Positions 45,273 to 63,782 are shown, counted from the stretch's first letter. The stretch is 64,000 bases of DNA from an uncultured delta proteobacterium (GCA_963816145.1 CAWFJP010000001.1:128001-192000), one strand, 5' to 3'. Program-made: numbers and translations. Notes: generated by a model from the sequence alone, not told the origin.

Positions 45273-45286
45273 AAATTTTTAATGAT

Positions 45287-45741: not shown

Positions 45742-47589
45742 TTGCGCACAAGTGGTGAACACAGAACTGAATTGGAACCTACCCCCACTGAGAACACCGT
45801 GGCTTTTCGGGCGGCTGATTTTTCCACGCTATGCGAGGCCCTGGATTACTCAGCCCTGGGACAGACCGGGTGCAATTTCTACGGGAGTCGGGGCGAGTTG
45901 TGCGCCGTTCTGTCATATGCGGATCTTCGAGAGCAGGCACTATCCTTGGCGCGAAAGCTTTTGAGCTTGAGACTCGACCGGGGCGCTCGAGTAGCAATCA
46001 TTGCCGAGACCGATCCAAATTTTCACCGCATATTTTTCGCTTGCCAGTACGCCGGTCTCGTGCCAGTGCCGGTTTCGGCATCGACGTTCATGAGTGGCCG
46101 AGAGGCTTACGTCGCACAACTCAGGGCGCTTCTGCGCGATTGCCGAGCGTCCGTCGCGATGGCGCCGTCTGAGTTCTATCCCTTTTTGGCCGAGGCCGCC
46201 GAGGAGTCAAATATTGCCCATGTCGGCACACTGGAATCCTTCGAGCGACTGCCTGAGTCTCAAGAGAGTCTGCGCCCCTCGGAGCCGGATGAGGTCGCCT
46301 ATCTTCAATATACTTCCGGAAGCACGCGATTTCCCCGCGGAGTAATTATTACCCAAAAGGCGGTCCTCGCCAATCTGAATGAAATCATAATTCATGGCCT
46401 CAAGCTCCGCCCCGGTGACCGCGCCTTCTCCTGGCTGCCCTTTTATCACGACATGGGGCTGGTGGGATTCGTGCTCGGGCCGATGGTGTCGCAGATCTCC
46501 GTGGATTATTTAAAAACCTGGATGTTTGCCATGCGACCACTGTTGTGGTTGTCCTTGATGACACGCACCAAAGCCACCATTTCGTTTAGCCCGTCTTTCG
46601 GTTATCAACTGTGCGTGAAGCGTCTCAGGGGGGATGTCGCCAGCACTTTCGATCTCGGCGCGTGGCGGGTCGCCGGAGTAGGCGCCGAAACGATCCGGTC
46701 AGCTGCCTTGGCGGAGTTTGCCGAAGTTCTGCAACCAAGCGGATTTAAGGCGAGCGCATTTATGCCCTGCTACGGAATGGCAGAGGCCGCCCTCGCCGTA
46801 AGTTTCACACCCGTCGACCAAGGTATCACCGTTGATCGAGTTGACCCGGCTGCGTTATCCGAGCGTGGAATGGCTTTGGCCGTGAATGGGCGTGACCCAG
46901 GCTCCGAACGGGTGATATCAAATACAAGACCGTTTGTAATTTGCGGCGTCCCTCTGCCGGGAACTCAAGTCGAAATTCGTGACGAGCAAGGCAGAGTTCT
47001 GCCGGATCGCCATGCCGGTGTTATTTTTTTGCGCGGCGCAAACATGATGTCCGGGTACTTCGACAATCTCGAGAGAACTCGTGAGGTCTTGTCCTCGGAC
47101 GGATGGTTTGACACCCAAGACATTGGCTATCTCGCCGAAGGTCGGGTTGTGATCATTGGCCGCAAGAAAGATGTCATCATTATCAATGGCCGAAAAATCT
47201 GGGCTCAAGATTTGGAGCATCTCGCTGAGGAATTGCCCGAGGTGAGAACGGGCGACGCATGCGCGTTTTCGCTACTGAACCCTAATGGGATTGAAATGGC
47301 GGCGATGGTTGTGCAGTGGCGCGAGGGGAATTCGACCAGGGAAGGAGAGTTTGCCCATCGCTTGCAGGGGCTGATCGGCGAGCGCTTCGGGATAGACTGT
47401 TTCATTGAGATTGTTCCGCCGCACACCCTGCCGCGTACGTCCTCCGGAAAGCTTTCCCGTTCGAAGGCACGGGAAGAATTTCTGAGCCGGCATGATCCGG
47501 CTATTCTGCAACGAAAATGGGTCAGGCGAAGCGCGTCCACCGAGGCTCGGCAGGAAGAATCAAATCCATGCGCGGCGTCGTCGCGTTGA
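45742..47589 (+). CDS. Fatty acyl-AMP ligase / acyl-ACP synthetase (AasR-like)
   Basis: YLQYTSGSTRFPRGV, SWLPFYHDMGLVG, CYGMAEA, IGRKKDVIIINGR, LPRTSSGKLSR. Start may be TTG 45772. Confidence 0.9.
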   Translation: MRTSGEHRTELEPTPTENTVAFRAADFSTLCEALDYSALGQTGCNFYGSRGELCAVLSYADLREQALSLARKLLSLRLDRGARVAIIAETDPNFHRIFFACQYAGLVPVPVSASTFMSGREAYVAQLRALLRDCRASVAMAPSEFYPFLAEAAEESNIAHVGTLESFERLPESQESLRPSEPDEVAYLQYTSGSTRFPRGVIITQKAVLANLNEIIIHGLKLRPGDRAFSWLPFYHDMGLVGFVLGPMVSQISVDYLKTWMFAMRPLLWLSLMTRTKATISFSPSFGYQLCVKRLRGDVASTFDLGAWRVAGVGAETIRSAALAEFAEVLQPSGFKASAFMPCYGMAEAALAVSFTPVDQGITVDRVDPAALSERGMALAVNGRDPGSERVISNTRPFVICGVPLPGTQVEIRDEQGRVLPDRHAGVIFLRGANMMSGYFDNLERTREVLSSDGWFDTQDIGYLAEGRVVIIGRKKDVIIINGRKIWAQDLEHLAEELPEVRTGDACAFSLLNPNGIEMAAMVVQWREGNSTREGEFAHRLQGLIGERFGIDCFIEIVPPHTLPRTSSGKLSRSKAREEFLSRHDPAILQRKWVRRSASTEARQEESNPCAASSR

Positions 47590-48527
47590 CGGGAGCGACC
47601 GGATTCATCGGTAGCGCGATAGCTCGAAAACTCGTAAACGAAGGGTGGCGCGTCCGCGCGCTCATCCGCGCGCCATCGCGGCGAGCACGCCTCGAGGGAA
47701 TCTCGATTCAGTGGGTTCACGGCACACTCGAAAATTTTGAGCACCTCGATAGCCTGGTGGGCGATGCGGATGCCGTGGTCCACTGCGCAGGGGCGCTGCG
47801 CGGTATCACCGACGCCGATTTTTATTCTGTGAATGTTGAGGCGGTGTCACGGCTGGCGCAAATTGCCACGCTCAGGAGCCCCGCTCCCCGGTTCCTTTTA
47901 ATTTCATCTTTGGCAGCTCGGGAACCAAATTTGTCGGCCTACGCGGCCAGCAAGCGGATGGGAGAGATCGCCCTATCCCAAATGGCCGGCGGTTTCGCGT
48001 GGACCGTGCTTCGCCCGCCAGCTGTCTATGGCCCCGGCGACCGTGCACTGCTTCCCCTGTTCCGCCTTATGCGGCGCGGGATCGCTCCGTTGCTAGGCCG
48101 AACTGACGCCAGATTCTCTCTGCTCTATGTCGAAGATCTGGCGGAGGCGGTGCTAAAATGGCTGGTCAGCGAGAGCCGAGAGAGCCGCGTGTTCGAGTTG
48201 GATGACGGACACCCAAGGGGATATAGCTGGAGTGAGGTTGCGGAAACGTTCGAGCGGCTTCGCGGAAAACCGGCGTTTCGTTTCCACTTGTCCGAGCTGC
48301 CCATGAATGTCGCCGCGAAGCTTAATCAAATCGCCGCATCGGTTATAGGATACGCGCCAATGTTTACCGAGGGGAAAGTGCGGGAGATTAGGCATCCCGA
48401 CTGGGTGTGTGACAACTCCATGTTTTGCCAGGCGGCCAATTGGAAGCCCACGATGTGTCTGGAAGAAGGGCTGCGGGCGACTCTTAGCCTCACGGCAAGT
48501 GGTGTCAGTGGCCTGGGGCAGGGTTAG
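47568..48527 (+). CDS. NAD-dependent epimerase/dehydratase-type reductase (CerR-like by context)
   Basis: LTGATGFIG, VVHCAG, ISSLAAREP, YAASK, RPPAVYGPGD; overlaps the ligase gene. Confidence 0.85.
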   Translation: MRGVVALTGATGFIGSAIARKLVNEGWRVRALIRAPSRRARLEGISIQWVHGTLENFEHLDSLVGDADAVVHCAGALRGITDADFYSVNVEAVSRLAQIATLRSPAPRFLLISSLAAREPNLSAYAASKRMGEIALSQMAGGFAWTVLRPPAVYGPGDRALLPLFRLMRRGIAPLLGRTDARFSLLYVEDLAEAVLKWLVSESRESRVFELDDGHPRGYSWSEVAETFERLRGKPAFRFHLSELPMNVAAKLNQIAASVIGYAPMFTEGKVREIRHPDWVCDNSMFCQAANWKPTMCLEEGLRATLSLTASGVSGLGQG

Positions 48528-48649
48528 ACATCTGCCCCCGATTGGGGTATGAGGCTTTTAAACAACCTGGCTGTAGGAGGGATCGAAGGTCAACTCTTTT
48601 AGCGGAGGATCTCGTGCAGGCGGGGCCAGCGACTCTTGCCCGAGAGGCA

Positions 48650-48842
48650 AGAATCGCTGCACGCAGTGACGCCACCCACGCCCTCTGCGCATCCACGCAG
48701 GCTCGTGAACATCATCGGAGAAGTCGACAAGTCATTTCCAAAGGGGATTTTTCCCAGACCGCACAAGAAAGACCGCGACTATTACTGGAAAAAAGCGACC
48801 TCGCTGGCAAATAAGCTGCGGGCCTTTGACAAGAGCGGATGA
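48650..48842 (+). pseudogene. Probable C-terminal remnant of a 2OG-Fe(II) oxygenase-like gene
   Basis: ESLHAVTPPTPSAHPRRLVNIIGEV resembles the distal His...Arg motif. Its stop overlaps the next ATG (ATGA), and an in-frame stop lies upstream. Confidence 0.45.
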
Positions 48843-49807
48843 CGCCTGTGCAGCAGCCTGAGAGCCCCTGGAACTGGTTGCGACGCAAACTCTACTGCGC
48901 CCGCTTACGCAACAACATGCGCCACATGCGGAAGGCGCATCCGGACTTCCGGCTCGCCGGCGCACATGGGGTACTAAACACCGTCTATTGGCGCGGTAAG
49001 CCGGTTGGCCGTATTCTCCCACTCGAACGCCTCACTCGGGCAACCGCGCCAGACTGCTTCATCGTCGCTACGGGCCCGTCGATCAATCAGATCGACTTCT
49101 CCCACCTGCAAGGGCGTACCTGCATTGGCGTCAATGGCAGCATCCTCAAAAGCGAGGAATACTCGCTGCCCTTCCGCTCGCACGTGATCGCCGACCGCCA
49201 ATTCTTCAAGGACCGCTTCGAACTGGTGCGCAAGGCACTGATGTCCGGTGCGGAGTGTCTGTTCTCGTTTCGCGGTCTGAGCGTCATCTGCGAACGCCAG
49301 CCTGAGCTGTTGCGCGACGCCCGGGTCTTCCTGCTGGACGAGATCACGGCGCGCTTTGGCCAGCCGAAGCTGAGTGCGGTCAATTTCGATGCGGCGGCGG
49401 ATCGCGATCCCGACCTCGTTTTGCACCCCTCGGCGCGGCCCTCTAAGGGTTGGGTAGGATTCAGCCGGGATATCCGCAAAGGGGTGTTTACAGGTCAGAC
49501 TATCGCCTTTTCCGCCGTACAGGTCGCCGTCTGGCTCGGCTACACACGGATATTTATCCTCGGCATGGATCTCGGCGGAACCGGAGACAGGGCGCGCTTT
49601 TATGAGTCCGGAGAGAAGGCGGCACCGATACGACTCGACCGTGACTATGTAAGCTATATCCAGCCGGCGTTCGAAGTCGCGAGCAAGCTGCGTGGCGCAC
49701 TCGGCATCCAGATCTACAATCTGTCGCCGGACAGTCGCCTTCCCGCCGCAATCATTCCAAAATTGTCTTTCGCGGACGCGCTGGAGATGATCCGACAGCC
49801 TGCCTGA
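48839..49807 (+). CDS. WaaZ/RfaZ-like (GT73/DUF115-like) glycosyltransferase
   Basis: IVATGPS, IGVNGS, GFSRDIRKG..TIAFSAVQVA..LGY..I..GMDL..RFYE, IYNLS; pattern resembles the Kdo transferase WaaZ. Confidence 0.7.
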   Translation: MTPVQQPESPWNWLRRKLYCARLRNNMRHMRKAHPDFRLAGAHGVLNTVYWRGKPVGRILPLERLTRATAPDCFIVATGPSINQIDFSHLQGRTCIGVNGSILKSEEYSLPFRSHVIADRQFFKDRFELVRKALMSGAECLFSFRGLSVICERQPELLRDARVFLLDEITARFGQPKLSAVNFDAAADRDPDLVLHPSARPSKGWVGFSRDIRKGVFTGQTIAFSAVQVAVWLGYTRIFILGMDLGGTGDRARFYESGEKAAPIRLDRDYVSYIQPAFEVASKLRGALGIQIYNLSPDSRLPAAIIPKLSFADALEMIRQPA

Positions 49808-49991
49808 GCTCTTTCGCCCGCATGTAGATTCGGGTCTTATGTCGATTTCAGCGCGGGGTTCCAGGCGTGGCCGGCAAGCTTTACAAGACAACCGCGTCCG
49901 TGATAGAAAAGAATCCGGTGGTGGCGCCGGGGAAAATGCGGCAACTTAAGTTCCCGCGGATAAACGGATCACCTTCGCGGCCTCCCACACG

Positions 49992-50240
49992 ATGAGCCAC
50001 TACGAGTCGATACTTTCCCAACTCTATGAAATTTTAGGGCCGTATACGCCGGACGGGCAGAGCCTTTCCGAGAACACGGAATTCATATCCGATCTAGGCC
50101 TCGATTCGATGAAGGTCATGCAGCTCCTGCTCGATACCGAAGAACGGTTCGACATTTCCATTCCCCTGAATATCATCCCGGACGTGCGGACCGTCGGGCA
50201 TTTCGCCCGCTGTCTCCAGCAACTCGTTGACCGAGGGTAA
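49992..50240 (+). CDS. Acyl carrier protein (AcpR-like, coupled to spt)
   Basis: DLGLDSM phosphopantetheine site, EERFDISIP; TAATG overlap with spt. Confidence 0.92.
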   Translation: MSHYESILSQLYEILGPYTPDGQSLSENTEFISDLGLDSMKVMQLLLDTEERFDISIPLNIIPDVRTVGHFARCLQQLVDRG

Positions 50241-51421
50241 TGGCCCTCCTTGACAAATTCCAGCAAATTGCCGGCGCCCGCGCGGCGCTGGCGCAATTGG
50301 GCGAGGACCCTTTCCGGGCGACGATTGAACGGATCCTGTCGCCAACCGAGGCCATTGTAAACGGCCGTCCAATGATCCTCGCGGGAACGAACAACTATCT
50401 TGGTCTCACCTTAGATGCTCAGTGCGTAGAAGCGGCGGTCCGAGCCGTGCGAGAAGAAGGAACGGGAACTACCGGATCGAGGATGGCTAACGGCAGCTAT
50501 GGCGGGCACGTTGCGTTGGAGAAGGATCTGGCGGACTTTTATGGGCGCCGGTGGTGTGTCGTGTTCTCAACCGGGTACGTTGCCAATCTGGGCGTTATTT
50601 CGGCGCTCACCGGGCCGGGAGATGTGATCCTTCTCGATGCCGATTGCCATGCAAGCATTTATGACGGCTGCCGGATGAGCGGGGCAGAAGTTATTCGGTT
50701 CCGTCACAACGATGTCGGGGATCTCGATAAGCGCCTGCGACGTTTTGGGGAGCGTCGTGCCGACACGCTGATCGTCGTGGAAGGCATCTATAGCACGCTG
50801 GGGGATCGAGCGGCGCTGGCGGAAATCGCGGCGGTAAAACAGGATCATGGCGCTTGTTTGCTTGTAGACGAAGCTCATTCGCTTGGAGTGCTGGGGGAGC
50901 GGGGCCGCGGACTTTCGGAGGAGAGTGATGTCGAAAGCAGCGTCGATTTTATCGTCGGCACGTTCAGCAAAAGCCTGGGAGCCACCGGCGGATTTTGCGT
51001 CTCGGATCACCCCGAGGCGGAGCTGATCCGATATGCAAGCCGCCCGTATATTTTCACCGCATCTCCCTCCCCGGCGGTGGTCGCTTCGACCAGAGCCGCT
51101 TTAAACAGGCTCCGAAACCAGCCTGAACTCCGTGTCCGGCTGTGGAACAATGCGCGGCGATTGTATCAGTCATTGCAGGAGATGGGATTCAGACTGGGTC
51201 CCGAGGTTAGTCCGATTGTCGCGGTCCGGTTCGCGCAGCGCGAAGAAGCGTTCGGCTTGTGGAACGCCCTTCTGGATCAAGGAGTATATGTCAACTTGAT
51301 TTTGCCGCCGGCGGCCCCCGACGGCGGCAGCTTGCTTCGTTGTAGCGCGACCGCGGCGCACACGCCGGACCAGATCGATCGAATCTGCAAAGCATTTGCT
51401 ACCGCCAGGGCATTATATTGA
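50240..51421 (+). CDS. spt: Serine palmitoyltransferase (PLP alpha-oxoamine synthase)
   Basis: GTNNYLGL, GTGTTGSRMANG, DADCHASIYDG, DEAHS, VGTFSKSLG, RPYIFTAS; ligase-reductase-ACP context. Confidence 0.85.
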   Translation: MALLDKFQQIAGARAALAQLGEDPFRATIERILSPTEAIVNGRPMILAGTNNYLGLTLDAQCVEAAVRAVREEGTGTTGSRMANGSYGGHVALEKDLADFYGRRWCVVFSTGYVANLGVISALTGPGDVILLDADCHASIYDGCRMSGAEVIRFRHNDVGDLDKRLRRFGERRADTLIVVEGIYSTLGDRAALAEIAAVKQDHGACLLVDEAHSLGVLGERGRGLSEESDVESSVDFIVGTFSKSLGATGGFCVSDHPEAELIRYASRPYIFTASPSPAVVASTRAALNRLRNQPELRVRLWNNARRLYQSLQEMGFRLGPEVSPIVAVRFAQREEAFGLWNALLDQGVYVNLILPPAAPDGGSLLRCSATAAHTPDQIDRICKAFATARALY

Positions 51422-51523
51422 GCTGACTACCCAGTCGCCTTGGTCATGATAACTTACCGGACATCAGGGTTCCGATTCTTCGATGTTCTCTTCGAACGAC
51501 ACGCGGCAGGACATTAAAGAAGC

Positions 51524-53284
51524 ATGCGGTTTTTGATTACCATCGCCCGGATGTATCCCGGACGGAGCGCGCTCACGCTGGTCGCGCTGTTATTTGCCAG
51601 CGTCGCGGAGGGGCTCAGTCTGCTCTTGCTGCTTCCATCGCTCAACCTGCTGACCAACGACGCCGCTCAAGGTCCCGGCAATGGGTTATCGGGGCTCGGA
51701 CACATGCTGACCGAAGCGCTCTCGGCAATTGGCGTAACGCCGACAGTCGGCGCTTTGCTGGGCATCATGGTCATCTGTCTTGCGCTCAAGGCGGTATTTT
51801 TGCTCCTGGCGAACGCCCAGGTCGGCTACACCGTTGCCCATGTCACGACCGACTTGCAACTCTCCCTGCTTCGCGCCTTGTTGGCTGCCCGGTGGGAGTT
51901 TTACGTGCGCCAACCTGTGGGCGGCCTGACCAATGCCATCGGCACCGAAGCGCTCCGGGCGTCACAGGCGTATCTTCAAGGCGCCAGGACTCTGGTGGCT
52001 CTCGTTCAAGCCATTGTCTTCGCGGGCGCGGCCTTTTTTCTTACGTGGAAGGGCGCCCTGCTATCCCTCGCGGCAGGAGGGATGGTCCTTTATGGGCTGC
52101 GCCGGCTCGTCCGCATGGCGCATCATGCCGGCATGCGCCAGACTCAACTGCTCAAGTCTCTCTTGACCCGATTGACCGACAGCCTTCAATCGGTCAAACC
52201 TCTGAAAGCAATGGCCCGTGAAGAACTGGTCGGCTCTCTTCTCAGATCAGAAAACAAGCGCTTGAATCGCGCGTTGCGTCAGGATGTGATCAGCACGGAG
52301 ACTCTGACCGCGGCTCAGGATTTCACGATTGGGCTGATCATCACCTCCGGTTTGTACGTGGCCCTGATTCAGTGGAAGCTGCCGTTCAACGCCGTGCTCG
52401 TCATGATTCTGGTCCTTACGCGCTCGATTGTATATATGGGAAAGACCCAGCGGCAATATCAAAAAATGAAGTCCTATGAGAGCGCCTTCTGGTCGTTGCA
52501 GGCCGTCATTGAAGACACCAGCCGCGCCCGCGAAACGAATCCAGAGGGCGCTTCTCCCCGCCTTGAGCACTCGGTTCGCCTGAACAATGTCAGTTTCGGC
52601 TATGGAAAAGTATCTGTGCTTGGGAATGCGTCGCTCACCGTCCCGGCGGGTTCATTCACTGCCATCATGGGGCCGTCGGGAGCGGGGAAAACCACGATCG
52701 CCGATCTGATCATCGGCCTGCTCCGTCCACAGCAAGGCGAAATACTGATTGATAATGTGTCATTGGAGCAGATTGACCTCAGGCAGTGGCGCAGGATGAT
52801 CGGCTACGTGCCGCAGGAATCTTTCCTGCTGCACGAGACGGTCCTGTGGAACGTGACGCTTGGCGATCCGGAGGTGAACGAGGCCGACGCCGAGGCTGCG
52901 CTGCGCGCCGCCGGGGCATGGGAATTCGTCGCGGAACTGCCGCAGCAAATACACAGCTCGGTGGCGGAGCGCGGTATGGCGCTCTCAGGCGGCCAGCGAC
53001 AGCGTATCGCGATCGCGAGGGCGTTGGCTCGCCGCCCCAAGCTGCTGATCCTCGATGAGGTCACAAGCTCGCTCGACCCGCAGACCGAGGCGGCAATTTG
53101 CCAAACGTTGCAAAGCCTTCGAGGTCAGCTGACCATCTTGGCGATCTCGCACCAGCCCGCCGTCGTCGAAGCCGCCGATAGAATTTACCAGATACAGAGC
53201 GGCGAGGTTATTTTAGTCCGCGATGGCCGTGAGTTGGATCTCGTCTCCGGCCAGTTACAAAAGTTACGCAGCGCCCAAACATAG
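51524..53284 (+). CDS. ABC exporter, fused permease/ATPase (MsbA-like)
   Basis: N-terminal TM domain; GPSGAGKTT, LSGGQRQR, LILDE. Confidence 0.92.
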   Translation: MRFLITIARMYPGRSALTLVALLFASVAEGLSLLLLLPSLNLLTNDAAQGPGNGLSGLGHMLTEALSAIGVTPTVGALLGIMVICLALKAVFLLLANAQVGYTVAHVTTDLQLSLLRALLAARWEFYVRQPVGGLTNAIGTEALRASQAYLQGARTLVALVQAIVFAGAAFFLTWKGALLSLAAGGMVLYGLRRLVRMAHHAGMRQTQLLKSLLTRLTDSLQSVKPLKAMAREELVGSLLRSENKRLNRALRQDVISTETLTAAQDFTIGLIITSGLYVALIQWKLPFNAVLVMILVLTRSIVYMGKTQRQYQKMKSYESAFWSLQAVIEDTSRARETNPEGASPRLEHSVRLNNVSFGYGKVSVLGNASLTVPAGSFTAIMGPSGAGKTTIADLIIGLLRPQQGEILIDNVSLEQIDLRQWRRMIGYVPQESFLLHETVLWNVTLGDPEVNEADAEAALRAAGAWEFVAELPQQIHSSVAERGMALSGGQRQRIAIARALARRPKLLILDEVTSSLDPQTEAAICQTLQSLRGQLTILAISHQPAVVEAADRIYQIQSGEVILVRDGRELDLVSGQLQKLRSAQT

Positions 53285-54601: not shown

Positions 54602-54744
54602 GCGGTCATAAAATCGCTGTAACGGATCCACCCGCTGCGCGATGCGCAGGAAATGAAAAAACACCGGCGGACTAGCCGTCCTTCTCGATCACGATAGTTA
54701 CCGTTTTGCGGAGTGCCGACGAGCCGAGCCGCGACCGAACCGAA

Positions 54745-55050
54745 ATAGCGGTCGAGATCGATGTGCTGCATCTTGAGACATGCGGCCGTCTGCGTGATGA
54801 ACTCGTGGCTCTTGATCCACGAGTGGAACCGATTCCATGCGGAGTTCTGCGCGAGAAGGCGGCCGTAGTTCTTCGAAGCGAACTTCTCGGACAAGCTCAG
54901 CCTGTAGTCAAATTTCGGCAGCACGGTGAAGAGATCGGGTGTCGGAAACGTTCGGGTCAGCTCGTCGCAGAGCGCCGGGGCCGTCTCGGGGCCCAGCGCG
55001 ATCAGCGAATACGGTTCGTAACGGACGTGGGACGGGACGAAGCTCAGCAT
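54745..55050 (-). pseudogene. N-terminal fragment of a truncated gene, possibly 2OG-Fe(II) oxygenase-like
   Basis: About 100 protein-like codons (RYEPY..ELTRTFP..LSLSEK..WNRFHSWIKSHEF), after which the frame runs into non-protein-like sequence overlapping the ELM1 3' end. Confidence 0.4.
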
Positions 55051-55241: not shown

Positions 55242-56510
55242 TTATTCCGCGGCTGACTGCGGCGGCGGATGAGTCTTTCGAATCTCCTCGGCCACCTCGG
55301 CCGCAACCACCGCGTGACCAGCCGGTGTCAGATGCACGTTGGTCCGAAAGTAGAGCGGCCGGGTTGACGGTAGCTTCGCGGCAGCGCGTTGCAGCGCCGA
55401 CGTGAGATCGCGATACACGAAGCCTGCCTCCCCCGCCTTGCGCGCGAAATAGCCGCGCTGACGATCGCTGAACTCGGTCACCGTCCGCTCGACACCGGCG
55501 TCGTGGAAATGCGCCTGGTGCCGGTATGCCGTATAAGCCGACGGGATGTAGACGACGATCGGCGTGAAGCCGTGCTCGCGACCCAGAGCGACGAGACCTC
55601 GCAGCGGCGGTTCGAAGAGGTCTAGAGTGACCTCGTCGCGCGCCAGCGCACGGGCATAGGTGACTTCATCGAGATCGCCGTTGCGTGAGTTAAACGTTAC
55701 CGTGTTGCCGTCCGGAAAGCGGATGTCGTAGCGGAAGTCGATCTCCTTCTTGCCGCGGTTGTACGCGAACCGCCAGATGCCGGAGAGCGCCAGGTTGAAG
55801 CCATAGCTGTGGCGTCCGAGGAACCCATGTTTCAGCCGTTCGTGCCAGGCGCAGAGCCTGTCCGACGCGATGGGGCAGGTGTGCTGGGCCTTCGACGCAC
55901 GGGCTTCCTGGAAGTGCACCGCATCGCGCAGGTCGTTGCCTTCGTAGACGGCGACGACAACGAAGCGCGGACGTTTGGCGAGCGCAAAGGCTTTCAAGGT
56001 CTGCACGTACTCGTACAACCCTCGACTCGGCATGCCGAAATTATAGACCCGCAGCCCCGTGCGCTCGGCCAGCACCGCCGGCCATGCGTCGGCGGGGGCG
56101 ACGCCGAAGCAGAATGTGAAAGAGTCGCCGATCGCGGCGACGTCGAGGCGCTCGAGCTTTTCGTAAGCGGCGGCATTGGCGTTGCAAAAGCCGGCGTTGT
56201 CCATGCGTCTGGTGTCGACGATGCCGGCCTCGTCGAACGACTCGGTGACCTCGACACCCGGCTTGTAGATCCACATGCGGTCCGCCGGACCACCGTCGTC
56301 ACGCGGCACGAGGACCGTGTCTTCAAAGCGTTGGAGCTTGCGCTGCTTGGCGATTGCCGAACGCAGCGTGGGCTCGAACTCGATGAGCAGATTCAGCGGG
56401 ATAGCGCTCGGGACGAGCCGCAACGCCAGCTCGAGAGGAGCAACGAACGCGAAGGTGACGACCGCCGCCAGGATGATGAAGCGCATCAGGCGCATTTCCC
56501 GTCCGTCCAA
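55242..56510 (-). CDS. SGNH/AlgX-AlgJ-like protein (putative O-acyltransferase or esterase) with N-terminal TM
   Basis: AIGDSFTF, YNFG, YEGND, NVHLTPAGH. Confidence 0.8.
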   Translation of the reverse strand: MDGREMRLMRFIILAAVVTFAFVAPLELALRLVPSAIPLNLLIEFEPTLRSAIAKQRKLQRFEDTVLVPRDDGGPADRMWIYKPGVEVTESFDEAGIVDTRRMDNAGFCNANAAAYEKLERLDVAAIGDSFTFCFGVAPADAWPAVLAERTGLRVYNFGMPSRGLYEYVQTLKAFALAKRPRFVVVAVYEGNDLRDAVHFQEARASKAQHTCPIASDRLCAWHERLKHGFLGRHSYGFNLALSGIWRFAYNRGKKEIDFRYDIRFPDGNTVTFNSRNGDLDEVTYARALARDEVTLDLFEPPLRGLVALGREHGFTPIVVYIPSAYTAYRHQAHFHDAGVERTVTEFSDRQRGYFARKAGEAGFVYRDLTSALQRAAAKLPSTRPLYFRTNVHLTPAGHAVVAAEVAEEIRKTHPPPQSAAE

Positions 56511-56609: not shown

Positions 56610-57731
56610 CTATATTTTGGCAATTGCACTGCGCCATAATCGCATCGGATCATCACCGCGCCTTGCCGCGAGGCGGGCGCCGCGCAAGAGATCGCGGAGC
56701 GCAGTAAAATATCCCGGACAGCAGGTCCTGCGGTAGGGCGAGTCTTCGGGAAGCGCGTTCATGAGACGCCGATGGGCCTTTCCCAGGGCGTGATAGGGTA
56801 GTGAAGGGAAGAGATGATGCAGGCCATGATAGCGCAACCCCACCGGGAATAGCAGCAACGTGACCAACGAGCTGCGAACGATGTTAATGGACTCCTCAAC
56901 TTGCTCTGCGAAAGTCATTTCGCCTCCCATATTCGCGTACCGGTGCGCCGCCAGGTTCCGAACCCAGTTCAGCGCGATCGAATAGGTCGACAAGCAATAG
57001 AAAAGTCCGACCATCGTCCAAGTAAGGAATCCCTTTAGAACCAAAATAAGAATCACGGCCAACCACAAGAAGCAGACCACGTCCAGTGCAATCCAGAGAC
57101 GCTGAGGTTCGGTAGGCGGGATGGTGCGGCGGTAGTATGGGTTGATCGCATAGGAAGATGCGCGCTCGAGCAGCCATCGCCGGAGGCAGGGATGGAGAAA
57201 AGACAGCGGTACCGCGACGAGGAAGCGGACGATTGCCAGGAGAGGCAAAATGGGGACCTGCGCAAAATACAACACAATTTCTCGGGTCGGCGCCGATGCC
57301 AGGGGCAGATATTCGCCATCTGCCGGAGTTCCATGCTTGCGCGGGTTGTGGTGATCGAGATGATTGCTGTAAAGGAGTGAGTGCATCAGCAAAGGCACTC
57401 CGCAAACAACATTCCAGGCAACGCGAAAGCCTACCATCGTCCGCCCCGACATGTGAACAATCTCGTGGATGAAGGTCCCCACCCGGAATAGGGCGGCTCC
57501 GGACAGTAAAAATGCGGCGACCTGAATCAGCGAGAAGGGCGGCGCCATGATATATATAGCAGCAGAACCGTAGGCGACGGATACCGTGATCAAAAAGTCA
57601 GCCCAATAAAGCAAGGGCTTGGGCACGAAAAGATCCTGAATAAGCTCCTTCGTCTGCCGGAGTGAAAAGGTCTGGGACGCCGGCCCAGTGGCAGGCGATC
57701 GGCCGCATTGGAGATTGGTTGATGAATTCAC
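56610..57731 (-). CDS. Membrane fatty acid desaturase/hydroxylase
   Basis: Three His boxes HEIVH, HLDHH, HGLHH; TM segments. Confidence 0.9.
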   Translation of the reverse strand: MNSSTNLQCGRSPATGPASQTFSLRQTKELIQDLFVPKPLLYWADFLITVSVAYGSAAIYIMAPPFSLIQVAAFLLSGAALFRVGTFIHEIVHMSGRTMVGFRVAWNVVCGVPLLMHSLLYSNHLDHHNPRKHGTPADGEYLPLASAPTREIVLYFAQVPILPLLAIVRFLVAVPLSFLHPCLRRWLLERASSYAINPYYRRTIPPTEPQRLWIALDVVCFLWLAVILILVLKGFLTWTMVGLFYCLSTYSIALNWVRNLAAHRYANMGGEMTFAEQVEESINIVRSSLVTLLLFPVGLRYHGLHHLFPSLPYHALGKAHRRLMNALPEDSPYRRTCCPGYFTALRDLLRGARLAARRGDDPMRLWRSAIAKI

Positions 57732-57924: not shown

Positions 57925-58989
57925 TCACAGCCGCCGATACAGCCAAACCGCGATACCAAGCATCACTGCCACTGGGCTCAGAGTTACCAGCGGCGCCGGC
58001 AGATGAAGCAAAGATCCAAGCTGGATCGTCAGCTGACTGCCGGCATGAAAAGTGGCGCCGATTAAGCCTCCGTGCAGCATGCGCTTACCGGCGCTTACCT
58101 GGCGAATCGGGCCGAGCACGTACGGAATGGCGAGAATCACCATCGCCAGCGTCGACAGCGGCATGCTGATAGATTGCCAGAGTGTAAGTTCAGGACGTTC
58201 GGCGGCAAGACCGGCCCGCTTGAGGTATTGTACGTATTCGTACAACTCCGAAGGCGAAAGCTTCTCCACCGGCAACATGATTTTAGTGATTTGGTCCGGC
58301 GTAAACGGGGAGTCCCACGGTAACCGGGCAAATCGCTCAGTAAAAATCTTGTTTTCCGTAATGATTTGCTGACGCACGTCGTGAAGCACCCACCGGTTTG
58401 AGTCCTGAATAACGGCCTCCCTCGCCCATGCCACGAGACGAAGCGCTCCATTGTTGTCGAAATGATAAATTTCGATTTCAGAGGGGATTCGACCATGAAG
58501 CAAGCGGCGTACATGCACCACACGTTGGCCATTGCGCGACCAGAACCCCCCCCGGGTATTCGTGGATTCCATGCTGGAAATCGCCTGAGTGCGGCGCTCA
58601 AAAGCCAATTGGTCCAACTTCGGCGCCACGAACTCCTGCAAGCCCACAACCGCAAGCATCACTAGAAGCCCGGTTTTCAGCACCGACCAAGCAATGCGCG
58701 CCTGGGAGACGCCGAGGGCTTGCATGGCGGTAAGCTCTTCGCCGGCCGCTAATTCTCCCAACCCGACGATCGCTCCCAAGAGCGCCATGGCTGGTGACAG
58801 CTCCACAATCCACCGCGGCAACGTCAACAGGACATACAACGCCGCATCGGAAGTCTTGTACGTCCCCTTGCCTACGCTATCCAGTTCGTGTACGAGTGCG
58901 ATCAGGCTGAACGCGGAGACCAGGATCACCACGATTAGTGCGTAGCCTCTAAAAACCCTTCTCGCGATGTATCGATCAAGTAAACGCAT
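57925..58989 (-). CDS. lptG: LptG-family lipid export permease
   Basis: MRLLDRYI, LGELAAGEELTAMQALGVS, QEFVAP, LSPSEL..Y; six-TM layout. Confidence 0.9.
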   Translation of the reverse strand: MRLLDRYIARRVFRGYALIVVILVSAFSLIALVHELDSVGKGTYKTSDAALYVLLTLPRWIVELSPAMALLGAIVGLGELAAGEELTAMQALGVSQARIAWSVLKTGLLVMLAVVGLQEFVAPKLDQLAFERRTQAISSMESTNTRGGFWSRNGQRVVHVRRLLHGRIPSEIEIYHFDNNGALRLVAWAREAVIQDSNRWVLHDVRQQIITENKIFTERFARLPWDSPFTPDQITKIMLPVEKLSPSELYEYVQYLKRAGLAAERPELTLWQSISMPLSTLAMVILAIPYVLGPIRQVSAGKRMLHGGLIGATFHAGSQLTIQLGSLLHLPAPLVTLSPVAVMLGIAVWLYRRL

Positions 58990-59001
58990 ACTTGCTTGTA
59001 G

Positions 59002-60198
59002 CTAGCCCCGAGATACGGGCGTTGCGGTCCTTTGCTGCGCTGGCCCCGGCCGGTTCCAAAGCAGTCCGACAACCAGGAGCGCCAGCAGGAGATCCGGCCA
59101 CCAGAGACCCGGGATCGGCTTTACGACGCCTTGTTCCACCCAGGTTTTGGCGATTAGCTGCAGGTTGTAAAACACCGCATAACTCACAGCCGATATGAAT
59201 AACTTGGCGTACTTGCCTTCGCGCGGCCTTGCGCGGCTAAGCGGGAAACCGAGCAATCCCATAAGAAACGCGAAGACCGGCGTAGATAGGCGCCATTGCA
59301 ACTCTGCGATATCGGGGGACGCGAGCGAATGCGCCAACTGCCAGGTAGGCGCCGCTTTGCGTTTATAGCCGATCGGCACATCATCGGGATTGTCCAGCTT
59401 GACGACAAGCTCTGGGCTGACCGTCCACGACATACCATCCTGACTCGATGAAAGGTCGTAGGAGCGCGCCCGAATACACACTAAAAATCCCCCGGCACGC
59501 CCGTCGTCCCGTGGCTGATGAAAGGCTTCGTCCGCCGACACGATGGTTACGGTGTCGCCCGAAATTGTTTGCATAAACACCCGCTGCATACGGCTGGAGT
59601 CTGGATCAATAGCTTGAAAAAACAGCACACGATTTCCGGACGGGTTTTCATAGAAATGCCCCGGTTTCAAATCGGCGAAATTGAACTCGGCGACGGCTTG
59701 CCGCTCAAGCAAATAGCGCAGTCCGTTTGCCCAAGGACGCATGTACAATGTAAGGCAAGCCATCAGAAGCGCGACTAGCAGCGATACCACAGCGACGACG
59801 CGAAAAATCCGCATGGGACTTATGCCGCAGGCAAAAAATGCCGTCATTTCGGAATCCGTATAGAGCCGGCTCAGACCGACGACAACCGAAATGTGAAAGC
59901 CGATCGGCAGGAGGATCTCCAAGGCCATGGCCAACCCGAGCAGGAGTAGCGGGAGGACAGCATCGGCCGGCAGCAAACCGCTGGCAACCAGGTTCAAGTA
60001 CCGGATGGCCGTAAAGTTGGCGAAGAGAAATAAGAGCGCTGGGCAGAAAATCAGCAGGGGCTTGGAAATTTCTCCAGCGATGTATCGATCGACGGTCGAT
60101 GTGAAAGTACTGGGGAACGTCGGGCTGGGTTTTGTCCGTGCGAACTTTCCATCGTCGCGTGACGAATGTCTCTTGGTGCGGGCCAGTAATTCAATCAC
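59002..60198 (-). CDS. lptF: LptF-family lipid export permease
   Basis: VDRYIAGE, RLYTDSEMTAFFACGIS, LKPGHF, AELQWRLS.P, PREGKY. Confidence 0.9.
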   Translation of the reverse strand: MIELLARTKRHSSRDDGKFARTKPSPTFPSTFTSTVDRYIAGEISKPLLIFCPALLFLFANFTAIRYLNLVASGLLPADAVLPLLLLGLAMALEILLPIGFHISVVVGLSRLYTDSEMTAFFACGISPMRIFRVVAVVSLLVALLMACLTLYMRPWANGLRYLLERQAVAEFNFADLKPGHFYENPSGNRVLFFQAIDPDSSRMQRVFMQTISGDTVTIVSADEAFHQPRDDGRAGGFLVCIRARSYDLSSSQDGMSWTVSPELVVKLDNPDDVPIGYKRKAAPTWQLAHSLASPDIAELQWRLSTPVFAFLMGLLGFPLSRARPREGKYAKLFISAVSYAVFYNLQLIAKTWVEQGVVKPIPGLWWPDLLLALLVVGLLWNRPGPAQQRTATPVSRG

Positions 60199-60540
60199 GG
60201 TGATCGGTGCACGGAAATACTTATTCTATCTTGCTTGCTTTCGATGCGACTGCGCACGAGTATAGCGGAATATAGCGCTAGCGTCCGGCTTTGCCAATCA
60301 TGGCTCAAAACCGATGCCGGTTTTACTGCAAAACGTCCACTGAGAAGAGAAGGACTATCGCTAGCAGCTGTCTTCTATCCTCAACAGTTGTTTTTTAATT
60401 GTTTTTTCTTGATTCCGGCGCGGTTTTCTCTTATTAGCTAGACAATTTGCTTCAACCTGGCGCACCACCTACAACACAGAGGCAGGGGCAAGTGCTCATG
60501 CCAAAAGGAATAACACGATGGCTATCAGTGTAAGCTCGTT

Positions 60541-61329
60541 ATGAAAGCGATTGTCCTAAACGCAGGCTATGGGAGTCGTTTGCGACCCAACACCGAGGAG
60601 CTTCCCAAATGCCTTCTGCCGGTCGACGCAGACCGTCCGGTGCTTGAGCTGCAACTGCGTACCCTCGCGCGATGTGGGATTCGACACGTCACTATCATGA
60701 TTGGCTATGGGGCCGAAAAGATTGAACACTTTCTTACCACGCACCCCATCGCGTCTCTGACAGTTCAAACTAGTTATAATCCTTTCTTTGCTACGACGAA
60801 TACGGCCGTGACCTGCTGGCTGGCAATTCGCGACATGACCGAAGATTTTGTTTTGGTCAATGGTGACACCCTCTTTGACGCAGAAATTTTACGTCGGGTG
60901 TTGGCCGCGCCGGAGGCCCCACTCGTCATGGCGATCGATCAAAAAGCCAGTTACGACGCTGACGATATGAAAGTTATGCTCACCAACCATGGACGGCTGA
61001 AAGCGGTCGGGAAATCCCTTCCAGAGTCGAAAATCGATGGCGAATCGATCGGCCTAATGGCATTTCGCGCTGACGGCGGCGCGGCTTTTCGTTCCGCGCT
61101 CGAAACAGCGGTCCGGGAACCTGAGACTTTGCGGCTGTGGTATCACGATGTCATTAGCCGGATGGCCTCTACACTGCAAGTGAACACCGTCCTCATCAAA
61201 GGCCTGTGGTGGAGAGAAATTGATACTCCTCAGGACCTTGCGGAAGTTCGTGCTTCGTTTGCGCGCCGAGAGTCGACGAGTGGGTTCCGTGACTTGCCTA
61301 GGATCAATACTGTTCCGCTCAAAGTTTGA
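60541..61329 (+). CDS. LicC-like (phosphocholine cytidylyltransferase family) NTP transferase
   Basis: MKAIVLNAGYGSRL..PKCLL, YNPFFATTN, NGDTLF, YDADDMKV, GESIG, WREIDTPQDL. Confidence 0.88.
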   Translation: MKAIVLNAGYGSRLRPNTEELPKCLLPVDADRPVLELQLRTLARCGIRHVTIMIGYGAEKIEHFLTTHPIASLTVQTSYNPFFATTNTAVTCWLAIRDMTEDFVLVNGDTLFDAEILRRVLAAPEAPLVMAIDQKASYDADDMKVMLTNHGRLKAVGKSLPESKIDGESIGLMAFRADGGAAFRSALETAVREPETLRLWYHDVISRMASTLQVNTVLIKGLWWREIDTPQDLAEVRASFARRESTSGFRDLPRINTVPLKV

Positions 61330-61523
61330 ACGTGCCCCACGCTCGCGCGAATCAATTTCAAATTCGAGCATTGCCTTGCCGCTTGCAACCATGAGCTTTG
61401 AATCATGCTCTCACGTTGCTTGAGCGCGTCTTGTGCTGTTGCCATCATTCTGACTCGCGCTGGATTGTGTCGACTTGAACCGCGCGCCCCAAATGCTGAG
61501 CGCCGCTGCGCGCCGGAGGTCAC

Positions 61524-62666
61524 GTGAAGCGGTGGAAGGTGAGGCGCAACCTATTTGCCCATCTTGGATTGGTGCTGATGGGCCTGGTGATCAGTGTGTT
61601 GCTGGCCGCGCTCGGCATAGAGGTTACGCTGCGCGTGACGGACGCCGTGCGCGAGGTCGAAGAGCCCCTCTCCGGCTCGCACCAGAGCGATGCGTATCTC
61701 GGCTGGAGTGGCAAACCCAACCTGCGCCTGCGTTTCCGCCGCGCCGAGTTCGACGCGCTGGTGCAGCATGATGCGGAGGGCTGGCGCCGGCCGAAGCCGC
61801 CGCGGCCGGCTGCGCCCACCTCACGCATCCTAGTTCTGGGGGACTCCTTCACCTGGGGCTGGGGTGTCAGCCAGGGACAGGTGTTCACCGACCTGCTGCA
61901 GGCCGGTCTGCCCGCCACAGTCGCCGTGTACAACCGCGGTGTCCCCGGCTTTGGTACCGCGCAGGAATACCTGGTGCTGCAGCGGGAGTTGGCCGCGCGA
62001 ACGTACGATGCGGTGGTGCTGCTGTTCTACATGAACGACTTGTCCGACAATATCAGCGCTAGGCAAGGTCGTCGGCCCTACTTCGAGCTGGTCGATGGGG
62101 AGCTGCGCCCGCGCAACCAACCCGCCTTGCCGGTGATCAATCCGATGAAGCAGTTCCTCAGGGAGCGCAGCCGCGCATACGCGTTCGTCGAGTTCAGGGT
62201 GGAGTTGCTGAGGCGCCGCTTCTTCCGCGAGGCGAACGACGACCGCGAGTACCGGACGGCGGCAGCGGTCGACTTCCACGACGTGCCCGGCTACGCCGTC
62301 ACGGCGCGCCTGCTCGGCGAGATACAGCGGCTGGCGCATAAACACGGAGCACGGTTTTTCCTGGTCTACATTCCGCAGCGCAGCGAGATCGAGCTCGACG
62401 CCCCGTTTCCCTATGTCCGCAGCATCCACGCGATGGTCGACGACATCGCGCGCCGCGAAAACATCCCGCTGATCGACCTCTCACCGCCGTTCCATCAGCA
62501 CACCAAGGCCGGGGAACAGCTCATCTACCCCATCGACGCGCATTGGACTCCAGCCGGGCACCGGGTGGCCGCTGCTGCACTGCTGGAGTCACCGATCTTT
62601 CAGCCGCTCCGCGATGCTAGCGCAAGCGCGCGGCGCGGCCCGGGCCTGGCTGGCCGCCGTCGGTGA
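61524..62666 (+). CDS. SGNH/GDSL family protein with N-terminal TM
   Basis: LVLGDSFTWGWGV, NRGVPGFGT.QE, YMND, DAHWTPAGH. Confidence 0.88.
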   Translation: MKRWKVRRNLFAHLGLVLMGLVISVLLAALGIEVTLRVTDAVREVEEPLSGSHQSDAYLGWSGKPNLRLRFRRAEFDALVQHDAEGWRRPKPPRPAAPTSRILVLGDSFTWGWGVSQGQVFTDLLQAGLPATVAVYNRGVPGFGTAQEYLVLQRELAARTYDAVVLLFYMNDLSDNISARQGRRPYFELVDGELRPRNQPALPVINPMKQFLRERSRAYAFVEFRVELLRRRFFREANDDREYRTAAAVDFHDVPGYAVTARLLGEIQRLAHKHGARFFLVYIPQRSEIELDAPFPYVRSIHAMVDDIARRENIPLIDLSPPFHQHTKAGEQLIYPIDAHWTPAGHRVAAAALLESPIFQPLRDASASARRGPGLAGRRR

Positions 62667-62696
62667 CGGGGTGCGCGCCGAGGGGTGATCGTCGTC

Positions 62697-63782
62697 CTAC
62701 GCACGTGGCCGCTTGGCTTGTCCCCATATCCGCGCGCCGCTTGTGAAATCACGCGGCTTGCGCGCCACCGTTAAAGACCTCCAGAGCGAGGAAAGGCGGA
62801 TATGCGACAGGGTCTGCCGACACAGCGCGGACCGCCAAAACCGCCACCAAACATTCCATCTTCTATCGCTCGCTGTATGCCAGCATACTTTGAACCAGAG
62901 GCGACCAAGCAATTGCGAGAACGCCGGCTCAGGATAGCAGCCTGCCCGGTGATTCGCCGCCTGCAGGCGCAACAACCAGGTCTCTGCCCATTCAAGATAA
63001 TTAAGATCCGGTCTGAACCCTCGTTTCCGCATGCTGCGCAACAACAAGTGACGATTCAGGTCGGAATCAGTAAACGAAACTCCGAGGAGGTGGAGTTGCT
63101 CTGCATAGATAGCCAATCGTCGCTCTGGCGCCCGATCGGCCTTTTCTTGGCTAAGCTGGTTAGCGTGCATCCGACGACGCACCAAGACTTCAGGCAAAGT
63201 GGCGAGCTTGTGATTTGCAGCGATACGCGACCAGAGGTCGAAATCCTCACTGACATCAAATTCCTCTCGATGCCTGTACGCACGCAGCACAACGGTGCGG
63301 GCCATACTGGTGGAATTCTCAATTCCTTGTTGGAAGAGCCGCCACGCTGCGATCTCCTCTGGTGAGGTAGGTTTGCGCTTAATCCTGCCCGACGGGTATC
63401 CTGCTTCGCTCATCCACTCGATCCAAGATCCTACTGCCGCATAATCTGGGTGGCTATCAAGAAAGGCGGTCTGCTTAGCAAGCCGCTCGGGACACGCCCA
63501 ATCGTCGCTGTCCAAAAACGCCAGATACTCGCCGCGCGCGAGTTCAATACCTTTGTTGCGGGTCGGCGACACACCGAGATTGGTATCGTTACACACTAGA
63601 CGAATGCGAGGATCGCCATAGGATCGGACAACGGCTATGCTTCCGTCGTTCGATCCGTCATCGATAACGAGCAGTTCGAAATCAGGAAATGTCTGAGACA
63701 ATATGCTGTCGACTGCAATACCCAAGTACTTTTCCCGATTATAAACCGGAATGACGACAGTGACCTTAGGGGATTCAGTCAT
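62697..63782 (-). CDS. Glycosyltransferase family 2
   Basis: VTVVIPVYNREKYL, IDDGSND, RNKG, AFLDSDD, SEDFDLW. Confidence 0.92.
   Translation of the reverse strand: MTESPKVTVVIPVYNREKYLGIAVDSILSQTFPDFELLVIDDGSNDGSIAVVRSYGDPRIRLVCNDTNLGVSPTRNKGIELARGEYLAFLDSDDWACPERLAKQTAFLDSHPDYAAVGSWIEWMSEAGYPSGRIKRKPTSPEEIAAWRLFQQGIENSTSMARTVVLRAYRHREEFDVSEDFDLWSRIAANHKLATLPEVLVRRRMHANQLSQEKADRAPERRLAIYAEQLHLLGVSFTDSDLNRHLLLRSMRKRGFRPDLNYLEWAETWLLRLQAANHRAGCYPEPAFSQLLGRLWFKVCWHTASDRRWNVWWRFWRSALCRQTLSHIRLSSLWRSLTVARKPRDFTSGARIWGQAKRPRA

Follow-up and report, generated by a model that had tools for sequence, protein, structure and literature searches.

What kind of lipid is made by a gene cluster that joins a familiar sphingolipid core to a less familiar set of head-group genes? 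The question is raised by a stretch of 64,000 nucleotides (nt) from an uncultured delta proteobacterium (GCA_963816145.1 CAWFJP010000001.1:128001-192000), here called the window, which carries a putative gene for serine palmitoyltransferase (SPT, gene spt) together with glycosyltransferase (GT) and lipid transport genes. The head groups of bacterial sphingolipids have been described for few organisms, and polar ones are hard to extract. A first-pass annotation had proposed a sphingolipid-type cluster that ends at position 63,782. All the genes it named are present at about the places it gave, and the cluster itself turned out to run on for about 12.6 kb beyond the window edge, to about 76,570 in window numbering (window, G000:C1:128001-192000; continuation locus L001, G000:C1:190001-208000). 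In our reading, to which we give a probability of roughly 0.6, this island would make ceramide by the proteobacterial route and decorate it into an anionic outer-membrane glyco(phospho)sphingolipid. The core and the export genes are of a kind already known; the new part is a pair of ELM1/KdoT-family GT-B domains, members of a clade that is found with spt and often lies beside a GT8-like domain. For the core and for export we rely on homology to systems that have been tested; every head-group step is one that we infer.

The protein encoded from position 50,240 reaches 633.8 bits against the betaproteobacterial SPT model NF047599 (cut-off 500) and stays below the cut-offs of BioF (331.5/426), Kbl (297.6/460) and HemA (221.9/339), as well as below that of the alphaproteobacterial SPT model (468/670). 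Its best solved relatives in a phmmer search are SPTs at 438 and 427 bits, with Kbl at 209, BioF at 196 and 5-aminolevulinate synthase at 165. In a 21-row tree whose references are annotated or defined by their locus, purified enzymes having been compared by phmmer only, the protein lies inside the SPT side with a support of 100/100; its sister is a Candidatus Binatia record, and Methylomirabilis and Nitrospiraceae records come next (99/99). The first-pass annotation had named a grouping with BioF or Kbl as fatal to its proposal, and the protein groups with the SPTs. Judged from its sequence, it is a serine palmitoyltransferase, not BioF, Kbl or HemA, with serine as the presumed substrate. That a different substrate is condensed, or that the island makes a secreted amino-lipid metabolite, appears highly improbable: the alpha-oxoamine synthase fold is common to other synthases, and the island also encodes a P450, an oxygenase and a sulfotransferase, but the score above the SPT cut-off, the 100/100 nesting and the full five-gene core with lptFG speak against it. 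The occurrence of spt-like genes in Desulfobacterota and other phyla has already been reported (available part of PMC11334938); no paper was found on serine palmitoyltransferase in Binatia.

The neighbourhood of spt was surveyed in the best 80 of 510 matched GTDB stretches, with flanks of at most 10 kb on each side, many of them shorter (32 loci reach 20 kb). Genes for the acyl carrier protein (ACP) AcpR (78/80), the reductase CerR (74/80), the acyl-ACP synthetase AasR (68/80) and the bacterial ceramide synthase bCerS (37/80) recur beside spt, so the arrangement seen here is not a matter of chance. All five ceramide genes are present and intact in the island, bCerS lying past the window. Compared with the spt locus of E. 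coli, whose YghO we take to be a bCerS homologue, AasR is 45% identical to the ligase and CerR 42% to the reductase. The overlap of the ligase and reductase genes noticed earlier amounts to 22 nt, with a likely reductase ATG at 47,568, and the coupling of the ACP and SPT genes consists of a TAATG in which stop and start share one base. By these likenesses the core (aasR, cerR, acpR, spt, bCerS and lptF2G2) is of the known Caulobacter/E. coli type. AasR would load a fatty acid onto AcpR, Spt would condense the acyl-AcpR with serine, bCerS would add the N-acyl chain and CerR would carry out the reduction; we regard the formation of ceramide by the island as highly probable. A blastn match to the spt gene is found in 4,098 of 5,426 complete E. 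coli genomes, and seven of the eight listed are annotated as spt.

The island has two domains of the ELM1 family. ELM1a is a protein of its own, and ELM1b is fused to a GT8-like domain in a protein that is 40% identical over 728 aa to one encoded on the Pseudomonas plasmid pPNP1. The only characterised family member that we found is KdoT, a transferase that uses CMP-activated 3-deoxy-D-manno-octulosonate (CMP-Kdo) and acts on Kdo2-lipid A; its SRRT motif has a dispensable first Arg and an essential second one (available parts of PMC12856342 and, for the activity, PMC10936431). The second Arg and the Thr of this motif are invariant in 65 aligned rows. ELM1b reads SRRT, and ELM1a reads SSRT, the first Arg being replaced.

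The clade to which both domains belong appears to keep company with spt. In a quick 64-row tree, made without bootstrap and without KdoT itself, they fall in a 23-row clade (SH-like approximate likelihood ratio test 98). Every row of this clade belongs to a record that bears spt, 14 of the rows having been reached through spt; of 77 ELM1-positive genomes the tree drew on 30 top-scoring loci plus 15 regions chosen with knowledge of the spt list. Among the canonical ELM1 genes sampled, many are neighbours of greA, trxB or lrp (37/97 neighbour open reading frames, ORFs, scanned). Matches to the clade profile that exceed 250 bits and extend past position 330 occur in 4 of 351 Pseudomonadota genomes, all four with spt as against 27 of 351 overall (p 2.8e-5), a count whose criterion was set after seeing the data and whose members are kin and not independent. 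Three more genomes exceed 250 bits without the extension, all of them without spt. Among plasmids, the 14 best of 79 ELM1 matches are all on spt plasmids (11 Roseomonas, 2 Pseudomonas, 1 Diaphorobacter). In the three plasmid loci opened, ELM1 lies within the core or close to it (Roseomonas, between acpR and cerR; Diaphorobacter, directly after cerR), and the GT8-like partner is fused or adjacent. The proposal of a dedicated tailoring set was to fall if such genes were never linked to spt elsewhere; for ELM1 and the desaturase a linkage is seen in other genomes. No literature linking ELM1 or KdoT to bacterial sphingolipids was found in a search that mostly left subscription papers outside and did not cover supplements; what it did match dealt with yeast, with the Caulobacter kinase or with an unrelated subject. 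Among the best 15 of 201 papers on Roseomonas none was on the topic, and we found no study of the spt clusters on pPNP1, pDCB2 and p1-AD2.

What sugar might these enzymes transfer? KdsB, WaaA, LpxC and a pair of NeuA and NeuB are encoded by the host, which can supply CMP-Kdo and probably CMP-nonulosonate. Ulosonate chemistry recurs beside spt, since NeuB is present in 30 and a CMP-sugar synthetase in 19 of the 80 loci. The acidic sugar added by the two ELM1/KdoT-family enzymes would be most likely Kdo or another ulosonate from the host CMP-sugar pool, and hexoses would be added by the GT2 enzyme and the GT8-like domain. That the lipid is glycosylated by island enzymes is fairly probable, and a ulosonate donor for ELM1 is a tentative assignment, somewhat short of even odds. 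CMP-ulosonate might also come from a separate surface-glycan cluster of the host with NeuB, NeuA-like and SGNH genes (G000:C16:76000-96000, L162). In Desulfobacterales-, Methylomirabilis- and other deltaproteobacterial records (L014, L031, L038, L045, L078 and others), a module that recurs next to spt contains NeuB, a short-chain dehydrogenase/reductase (SDR), an aldehyde dehydrogenase, a CMP-sugar synthetase, a transketolase, a HAD phosphatase and an unassigned 450-aa protein (15/80), and its content suggests a nonulosonate-type head group in those lineages.

A more specific proposal is that the spt-linked KdoT-family clade puts Kdo or another ulosonic acid on a ceramide-linked glycan, giving a ganglioside analogue or a ceramide-anchored mimic of the inner core of lipopolysaccharide (LPS) that leaves through LptF2G2. 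We consider this rather doubtful. The limits of the tree and of the four-genome count given above weigh against our main reading of the island, and so do several other observations. ELM1 of any kind shows no association with spt (9/77, p 0.15), the clade is present in only 9 of 80 spt loci and 4 of 27 spt genomes, and several of its copies lie away from spt (G222, G365, G371, G397). The first Arg of SRRT is lost in ELM1a and in most clade members (S-S-R-T or S-P-R-T). The ELM1a model has a GT-B fold (predicted local distance difference test, pLDDT, 93.2), its matches are GT-B proteins generally (epimerases, MurG, MGD1) with no donor indicated, and WaaA or other Kdo transferases were not singled out by the fold searches, which do not discriminate either way. 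LPS is a possible acceptor, as KdoT and WaaZ extend Kdo on lipid A and the island contains an LpxL-like gene. Finally, inositol-phosphate synthase was not found in the genome, for which reason a main model of an inositol-phosphoceramide resembling plant glycosyl inositol phosphorylceramides was dropped.

The matter of the acceptor returns with the WaaZ-like gene. WaaZ carries out KdoIII transfer in the LPS core, with Kdo2-lipid A as the acceptor. The island protein aligns with E. coli K-12 WaaZ in hhalign (99.6%, E 1.4e-23, 238 columns; identity 26%). Its model (pLDDT 93.9) has CstII/CstI sialyltransferases as top Foldseek matches and Maf as the top VIA-align match (Z 14.7, root-mean-square deviation (rmsd) 3.9, 215 aligned), followed by the non-transferase MptE/HPPK (Z 12.7, rmsd 3.6, 184 aligned); a PDB sequence search with the protein gave nothing. 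It fails the WaaZ equivalog cut-off and that of a second WaaZ-family model (68/473), and it sits outside the LPS core locus, between cerR and acpR. The cassette that holds the gene is absent in 5/5 close genomes and is skipped by contigs of two RNA-library runs, while all three metagenome loci retrieved with the gene contain it, and one of these is nearly identical to the source strain's own. (Contigs of four soil/rhizosphere RNA libraries cover island relatives, many 90-99% alike, and were used only for cassette joints, not for transcription or levels.) No WaaZ-like gene occurs in the 80 spt loci, the family is present in 7 of 351 Pseudomonadota genomes, 0/7 with spt, and five further spt genomes gave one weak partial match. 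In 4/6 loci opened, WaaZ-family relatives lie beside glycosyltransferase and LPS-core genes (heptosyltransferases, O-antigen ligase, GT8, GT4). The gene is ruled out as a conserved sphingolipid gene by the 0/80 loci and the 0/7 carriers; by homology it is a true WaaZ relative, but an optional insert of a family not linked to spt in general. The three glycosyltransferases named by the first-pass annotation (WaaZ-like, ELM1 and GT2) are thus all there, the WaaZ-like one as an accessory from a family that does not generally accompany spt.

These genes are the substance of the main competing explanation, which we judge unlikely: a two-product envelope island, in which the core makes plain or phospho-ceramide and the WaaZ-like, ELM1 and LpxL-like genes remodel the host LPS core and lipid A. 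It agrees with the Kdo2-lipid A acceptor of KdoT (available part of PMC12856342), with the LPS-type loci of the WaaZ relatives, with the retention of the host LPS genes and with the presence of an LpxL-like gene in the island. However, the island's clade of ELM1 follows spt through several phyla and three lineages of plasmids and is placed among the core genes, and a role in LPS only leaves this placement unexplained. In the preferred reading, a decorated ceramide, the WaaZ-like and SGNH genes would be optional extras.

The proposed destination of the lipid is the outer membrane. The stand-alone lptF-lptG pair lies above both TIGRFAM cut-offs and is distinct from the housekeeping pair: the genome has four LptF/G matches, two in the island and two on contig C4, and the LptG paralogues are 23.5% identical. 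In the survey, lptF is near spt in 41/80 and lptG in 37/80 loci. No lptB was found among the island ORFs. For Caulobacter, Uchendu et al. (bioRxiv 10.64898/2026.04.12.717747, available part) give genetic evidence for sphingolipid export by LptF2/G2, which bind shared LptB. By analogy, LptF2G2 would extract the lipid for the outer membrane with the help of host LptB, and we consider export by this pair very probable; the dedicated export machinery that had been proposed gains support from this extra pair. The ABC exporter, previously called MsbA-like, deserves this name at the superfamily level only, as it is below every listed NCBIfam cut-off (MsbA 211.8/602; best model HepA 279/725). It is near spt in 56/80 loci and is a probable flippase, which would flip the decorated product. 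A separate exporter adjoining waaA on contig C18 is the likelier MsbA. A replacement of LPS as in Sphingomonas is ruled out, the host having lpxC, waaA, kdsB and housekeeping lptFG.

The first-pass annotation contrasted the island with Caulobacter on account of a missing ceramide kinase and missing CDP-alcohol transferases. The second half of this contrast was an artefact of the window edge and fails, because two CDP-alcohol phosphotransferase genes lie 3.0-5.2 kb beyond it, followed by the bCerS-like GNAT gene. The first half holds genome-wide for the queries used: in the host genome (7.8 Mb; completeness 99.5%, contamination 6.7%), a DAGK family search gave one match, below the cut-off, and a tblastn search with proteins of other spt loci, 8 of them kinase-like and 7 Tam41-like, found nothing. 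The LicC-like transferase described earlier is indeed present; it is 51% and 43% identical to those of the Roseomonas and Diaphorobacter spt loci, respectively, and such a gene occurs in 22/80 spt loci. By family and position it is probably a counterpart of Caulobacter CC_1152 that makes a CDP-alcohol donor. One or both phosphotransferases would then transfer the phospho-alcohol to the 1-OH of ceramide or to the growing head group, and therefore a ceramide kinase would not be needed.

A product whose head group comes mainly from these three enzymes, by a Kennedy-type route or as a polymer resembling ceramide phosphoglycerate (CPG), with glycosyltransferases that are secondary or serve another glycan, is improbable in our estimation. 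Both phosphotransferases have intact motifs and are conserved in the relative G202; they are only distantly like CpgA-type proteins (88% and 52% probability), one of them with a CpgA-like layout, and a similar route through a nucleotidyltransferase and a CDP-alcohol transferase was proposed for Bacteroidetes (available part of bioRxiv 10.1101/2021.04.26.441525). On the other hand, such a product would leave four conserved glycosyltransferase domains without a role. CPG/CPG2 itself is unlikely, since the kinase-like, Tam41-like, MobA-like and phosphoesterase genes of that route were not found in the genome; membership in the pathway is ruled out by the absence of detectable ceramide kinase CpgB and CpgC. 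The sole MobA-like match in the genome proved to be an ORF overlap with bCerS.

Table 1. Features of the island and its borders, in order along the DNA. Positions are in window numbering unless preceded by L001; names are predictions from the evidence in the last column.
Feature	Position	Strand	Evidence
Decayed tRNA-Gly 3' piece	45286..45331		87% over 46 nt to tRNA-Gly(CCC) gene on C11
AasR-type acyl-ACP synthetase (fatty acyl-AMP ligase)	45742..47589	+	PRK09192 753 bits, cut-off 600
CerR-type ceramide reductase (extended SDR, NAD-dependent)	47568..48527	+	PF01370
Optional 1,359-nt cassette between cerR and acpR	48514..49872		6-nt direct repeat 48508-48513 / 49867-49872
WaaZ homologue, CMP-ulosonate transferase fold (Maf/CstII-like)	48839..49807	+	TIGR04437 93.7 bits, cut-off 200
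AcpR, dedicated acyl carrier protein, conserved Ser39	49992..50240	+	PF00550 and motif
Serine palmitoyltransferase, proteobacterial type, pyridoxal phosphate lysine K244	50240..51421	+	NF047599 634 bits, cut-off 500
ABC exporter, MsbA/PglK/HepA superfamily	51524..53284	+	PF00664 and PF00005
ELM1a, ELM1/GtrOC1 (KdoT-family) GT-B glycosyltransferase, spt-associated clade	53369..54601	+	PF06258 207 bits
SGNH protein 1, N-terminal anchor, triad Asp replaced by Asn, Ser and His retained	55242..56510	-	PF13472/PF16822
Three-His-box desaturase/hydroxylase	56610..57731	-	PF00487; His boxes at 89, 124, 302
LptG2	57925..58989	-	TIGR04408 337.5 bits, cut-off 240
LptF2	59002..60198	-	TIGR04407 291.6 bits, cut-off 230
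LicC-like nucleotidyltransferase	60541..61329	+	PF00483
SGNH protein 2, N-terminal anchor, intact Ser-Asp-His motifs	61524..62666	+	PF13472
GT2 glycosyltransferase	62697..63782	-	PF00535
2-oxoglutarate/Fe(II) oxygenase	L001:1858-2619 (3' end in window 63858..64000)	-	Pfam/NCBIfam
GT8-like/ELM1 (ELM1b) fusion, 800 aa	L001:2600-5002	-	Pfam/NCBIfam; GT8 lead from Atlas 0.97, family on 27-40% of members
CDP-alcohol phosphotransferases, two	L001:5012-6493 and 6514-7245	-	Pfam/NCBIfam; motifs intact
bCerS-type GNAT	L001:7312-8451	-	47% to E. coli YghO; Pfam/NCBIfam
LpxL-family acyltransferase	L001:8850-9845	+	Pfam/NCBIfam
P450	L001:10123-11523	-	Pfam/NCBIfam
Sulfotransferase	L001:12323-13369	-	Pfam/NCBIfam
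Phosphodiesterase	L001:13617-14570	+	Pfam/NCBIfam
Insertion sequence (IS), then tmRNA	L001:16606-16958 (tmRNA)	-	Right end of cluster

The product had been pictured as an unsaturated or hydroxylated, glycosylated and possibly O-acylated sphingolipid. The ceramide, its glycosylation and its hydroxylation or desaturation are probable; the O-acylation is not borne out. Both SGNH proteins indeed have one N-terminal hydrophobic segment each as a membrane anchor. Their role in O-acylation is unsupported because their cassettes are optional, being absent at the same places in relatives of about 90% identity, because there is no MBOAT in the island and because the triad Asp of SGNH1 is replaced. The SGNH1 region is absent in G201 and G204, and SGNH2 is absent in G205 and skipped by contigs of two RNA-library runs. 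One MBOAT is on contig C9; no AT3 was seen among the island ORFs scanned, a genome-wide AT3 search not having been made. Between ELM1a and SGNH1 lies an ORF of 163 aa (window 54559-55050, minus strand) with no Pfam match and 70% identity to one that L008 has in the corresponding position, possibly a gene remnant. The desaturase with its three His boxes is confirmed; it is 38% identical over 324 aa to a desaturase beside lptFG in a Sphingomonas spt locus. In Caulobacter, a DesA-family enzyme hydroxylates the ceramide acyl chain (available part of PMC11324152), and the desaturase here probably acts on that chain as well; together with the 2-oxoglutarate oxygenase it would hydroxylate or desaturate the ceramide. 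GT2 is syntenic at 89% in G205, and a 43% homologue lies beside a clade ELM1 gene in G397. The near-zero counts of GT2 and SGNH2 in the 80-locus survey were set aside, these genes being 10-11 kb away from spt, where the flanks end or have already ended. Sulfate might be added by the sulfotransferase. In the close relative L006 (8866-10605), a fused ATP-sulfurylase/adenosine 5'-phosphosulfate (APS) kinase gene separates ELM1 from the desaturase gene, as would suit a sulfated product; in the host genome the matches are to the APS-kinase domain only.

The island measures about 31 kb, between the decayed tRNA-Gly piece, a possible old insertion scar that would mark its left end, and an IS beside the tmRNA gene; a duplicated tmRNA end was looked for at the island and was not found. 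Composition is no marker of it, with a GC content of 57.1% vs. 56.4% and a tetranucleotide distance matched or exceeded by 4/154 windows. The host FtsZ is 80-86% identical to those of genomes labelled as the same genus or family and to those of G201 and G202. No spt above 45% identity appeared among the matches listed for 200 same-class genomes, and island-type spt is found in 4/89 genomes of the family of G201. Five close genomes have island DNA that is 87-94% identical, with the core, exporter, ELM1a, desaturase, lptFG, nucleotidyltransferase and GT2 syntenic where contigs reach; the phosphotransferases, bCerS, the LpxL-like gene and the phosphodiesterase are present and collinear in G202. 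The spt gene is 91-94% identical in records titled Acidobacteria, Chloroflexota, Terriglobales and Thermodesulfobacteriota, and 77% in one titled Patescibacteria (L008-L012, L024). G205 is in the same GTDB family as G201; the rest of these records may reflect mis-binning of contigs or a recent transfer. Clusters of this kind are also carried on plasmids, and a horizontal spread of the island is likely.

Some further observations concern its borders. In close relatives, right-end pieces from the sulfotransferase/phosphodiesterase region (L006:1-51, L007:5869-6257, L012:2448-2789) are found immediately upstream of aasR, an order that a circular permutation of the island would give, and in L007 the aasR end is near panB-panC-DUF502, genes that here flank tmRNA. 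An IS with a DDE transposase has copies of 99.9% identity at window 32562-34151 and L001:14675-16266, and a third on contig C31. Farther away, a GH94/glucoamylase-domain gene at window 7110-16035, presumably of the cyclic beta-glucan synthase type, is in two overlapping ORFs of 2,459 and 536 aa.

Taken together, the island presents the known core as a mobile chassis with swappable head-group modules, and it directs attention to one particular clade of putative enzymes, the KdoT relatives linked to spt and partnered by a GT8-like domain. The module being present on plasmids of cultured bacteria, the question can be approached with no need to grow the host. Should Kdo prove to be the donor, ceramide and lipid A would share both sugar chemistry and a transport route, which would bear on how sphingolipids substitute for LPS, and on the lipids of soil communities and of the skin commensal Roseomonas mucosa. 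The modules with NeuB and CMP-sugar synthetase would then represent the same strategy with other acidic sugars, and ulosonylated ceramides would be a widespread, mobile and undescribed class of surface lipids in environmental bacteria and on proteobacterial plasmids.

Among the closest known systems is that of Caulobacter crescentus, whose core and CPG/CPG2 genes were reported by Olea-Ozuna et al. (PMC11324152; see also PMC9393093; available parts). Matched by family and orthologous loci, CC_1152-CC_1168 (ceramide, CPG/CPG2, LptF2G2C2) and the island share aasR, cerR, acpR and spt together, a separate bCerS, extra lptF/lptG, a nucleotidyltransferase, CDP-alcohol phosphotransferase(s) and the retention of LPS. 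The island differs in that no ceramide kinase, Tam41-like, MobA-like or metallophosphoesterase gene was found and that it has no lptC, and it goes beyond Caulobacter in its ABC exporter and its ELM1, GT8-like, GT2, sulfotransferase, oxygenase and LpxL-like genes. The E. coli yghO-spt-lptFG locus (NZ_AP022261.1) has core genes that are 37-55% identical, with LptG2 at 35% and LptF2 at 33%, in the same operon order; there, however, genes for an 'LPS biosynthesis protein' and a dTMP-kinase-like protein are present and none of the island's head-group genes. As for single enzymes, the likeness to Acinetobacter baumannii KdoT lies in the ELM1 family, the GT-B fold, the essential SRRT Arg and a second-glycosyltransferase partner (PMC12856342, PMC10936431; available parts); KdoT acts on Kdo2-lipid A, whereas the island domains belong to a clade with a C-terminal extension that accompanies spt, and their function here is predicted. 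With E. coli K-12 WaaZ the WaaZ-like protein shares a full-length profile match and a sialyltransferase/Maf-type fold; it differs by its low identity, its score below the family cut-off and its place inside a ceramide operon instead of the LPS core locus.

Further counterparts of the arrangement are the plasmid clusters of Pseudomonas sp. JS425 (pPNP1), Diaphorobacter sp. JS3051 (pDCB2) and Roseomonas mucosa (p1-AD2). In the stretches opened, none of them has a WaaZ-like or SGNH gene, and the Pseudomonas and Roseomonas clusters keep kinase-type genes. On pPNP1 (L096, 9724-11750) the bCerS homologue is apparently split around an IS5 transposase. In all three, the spt core is accompanied by ELM1, a GT8-like domain, lptFG and a nucleotidyltransferase, and pPNP1 shares with the island also the exporter and the same GT8-like/ELM1 fusion.

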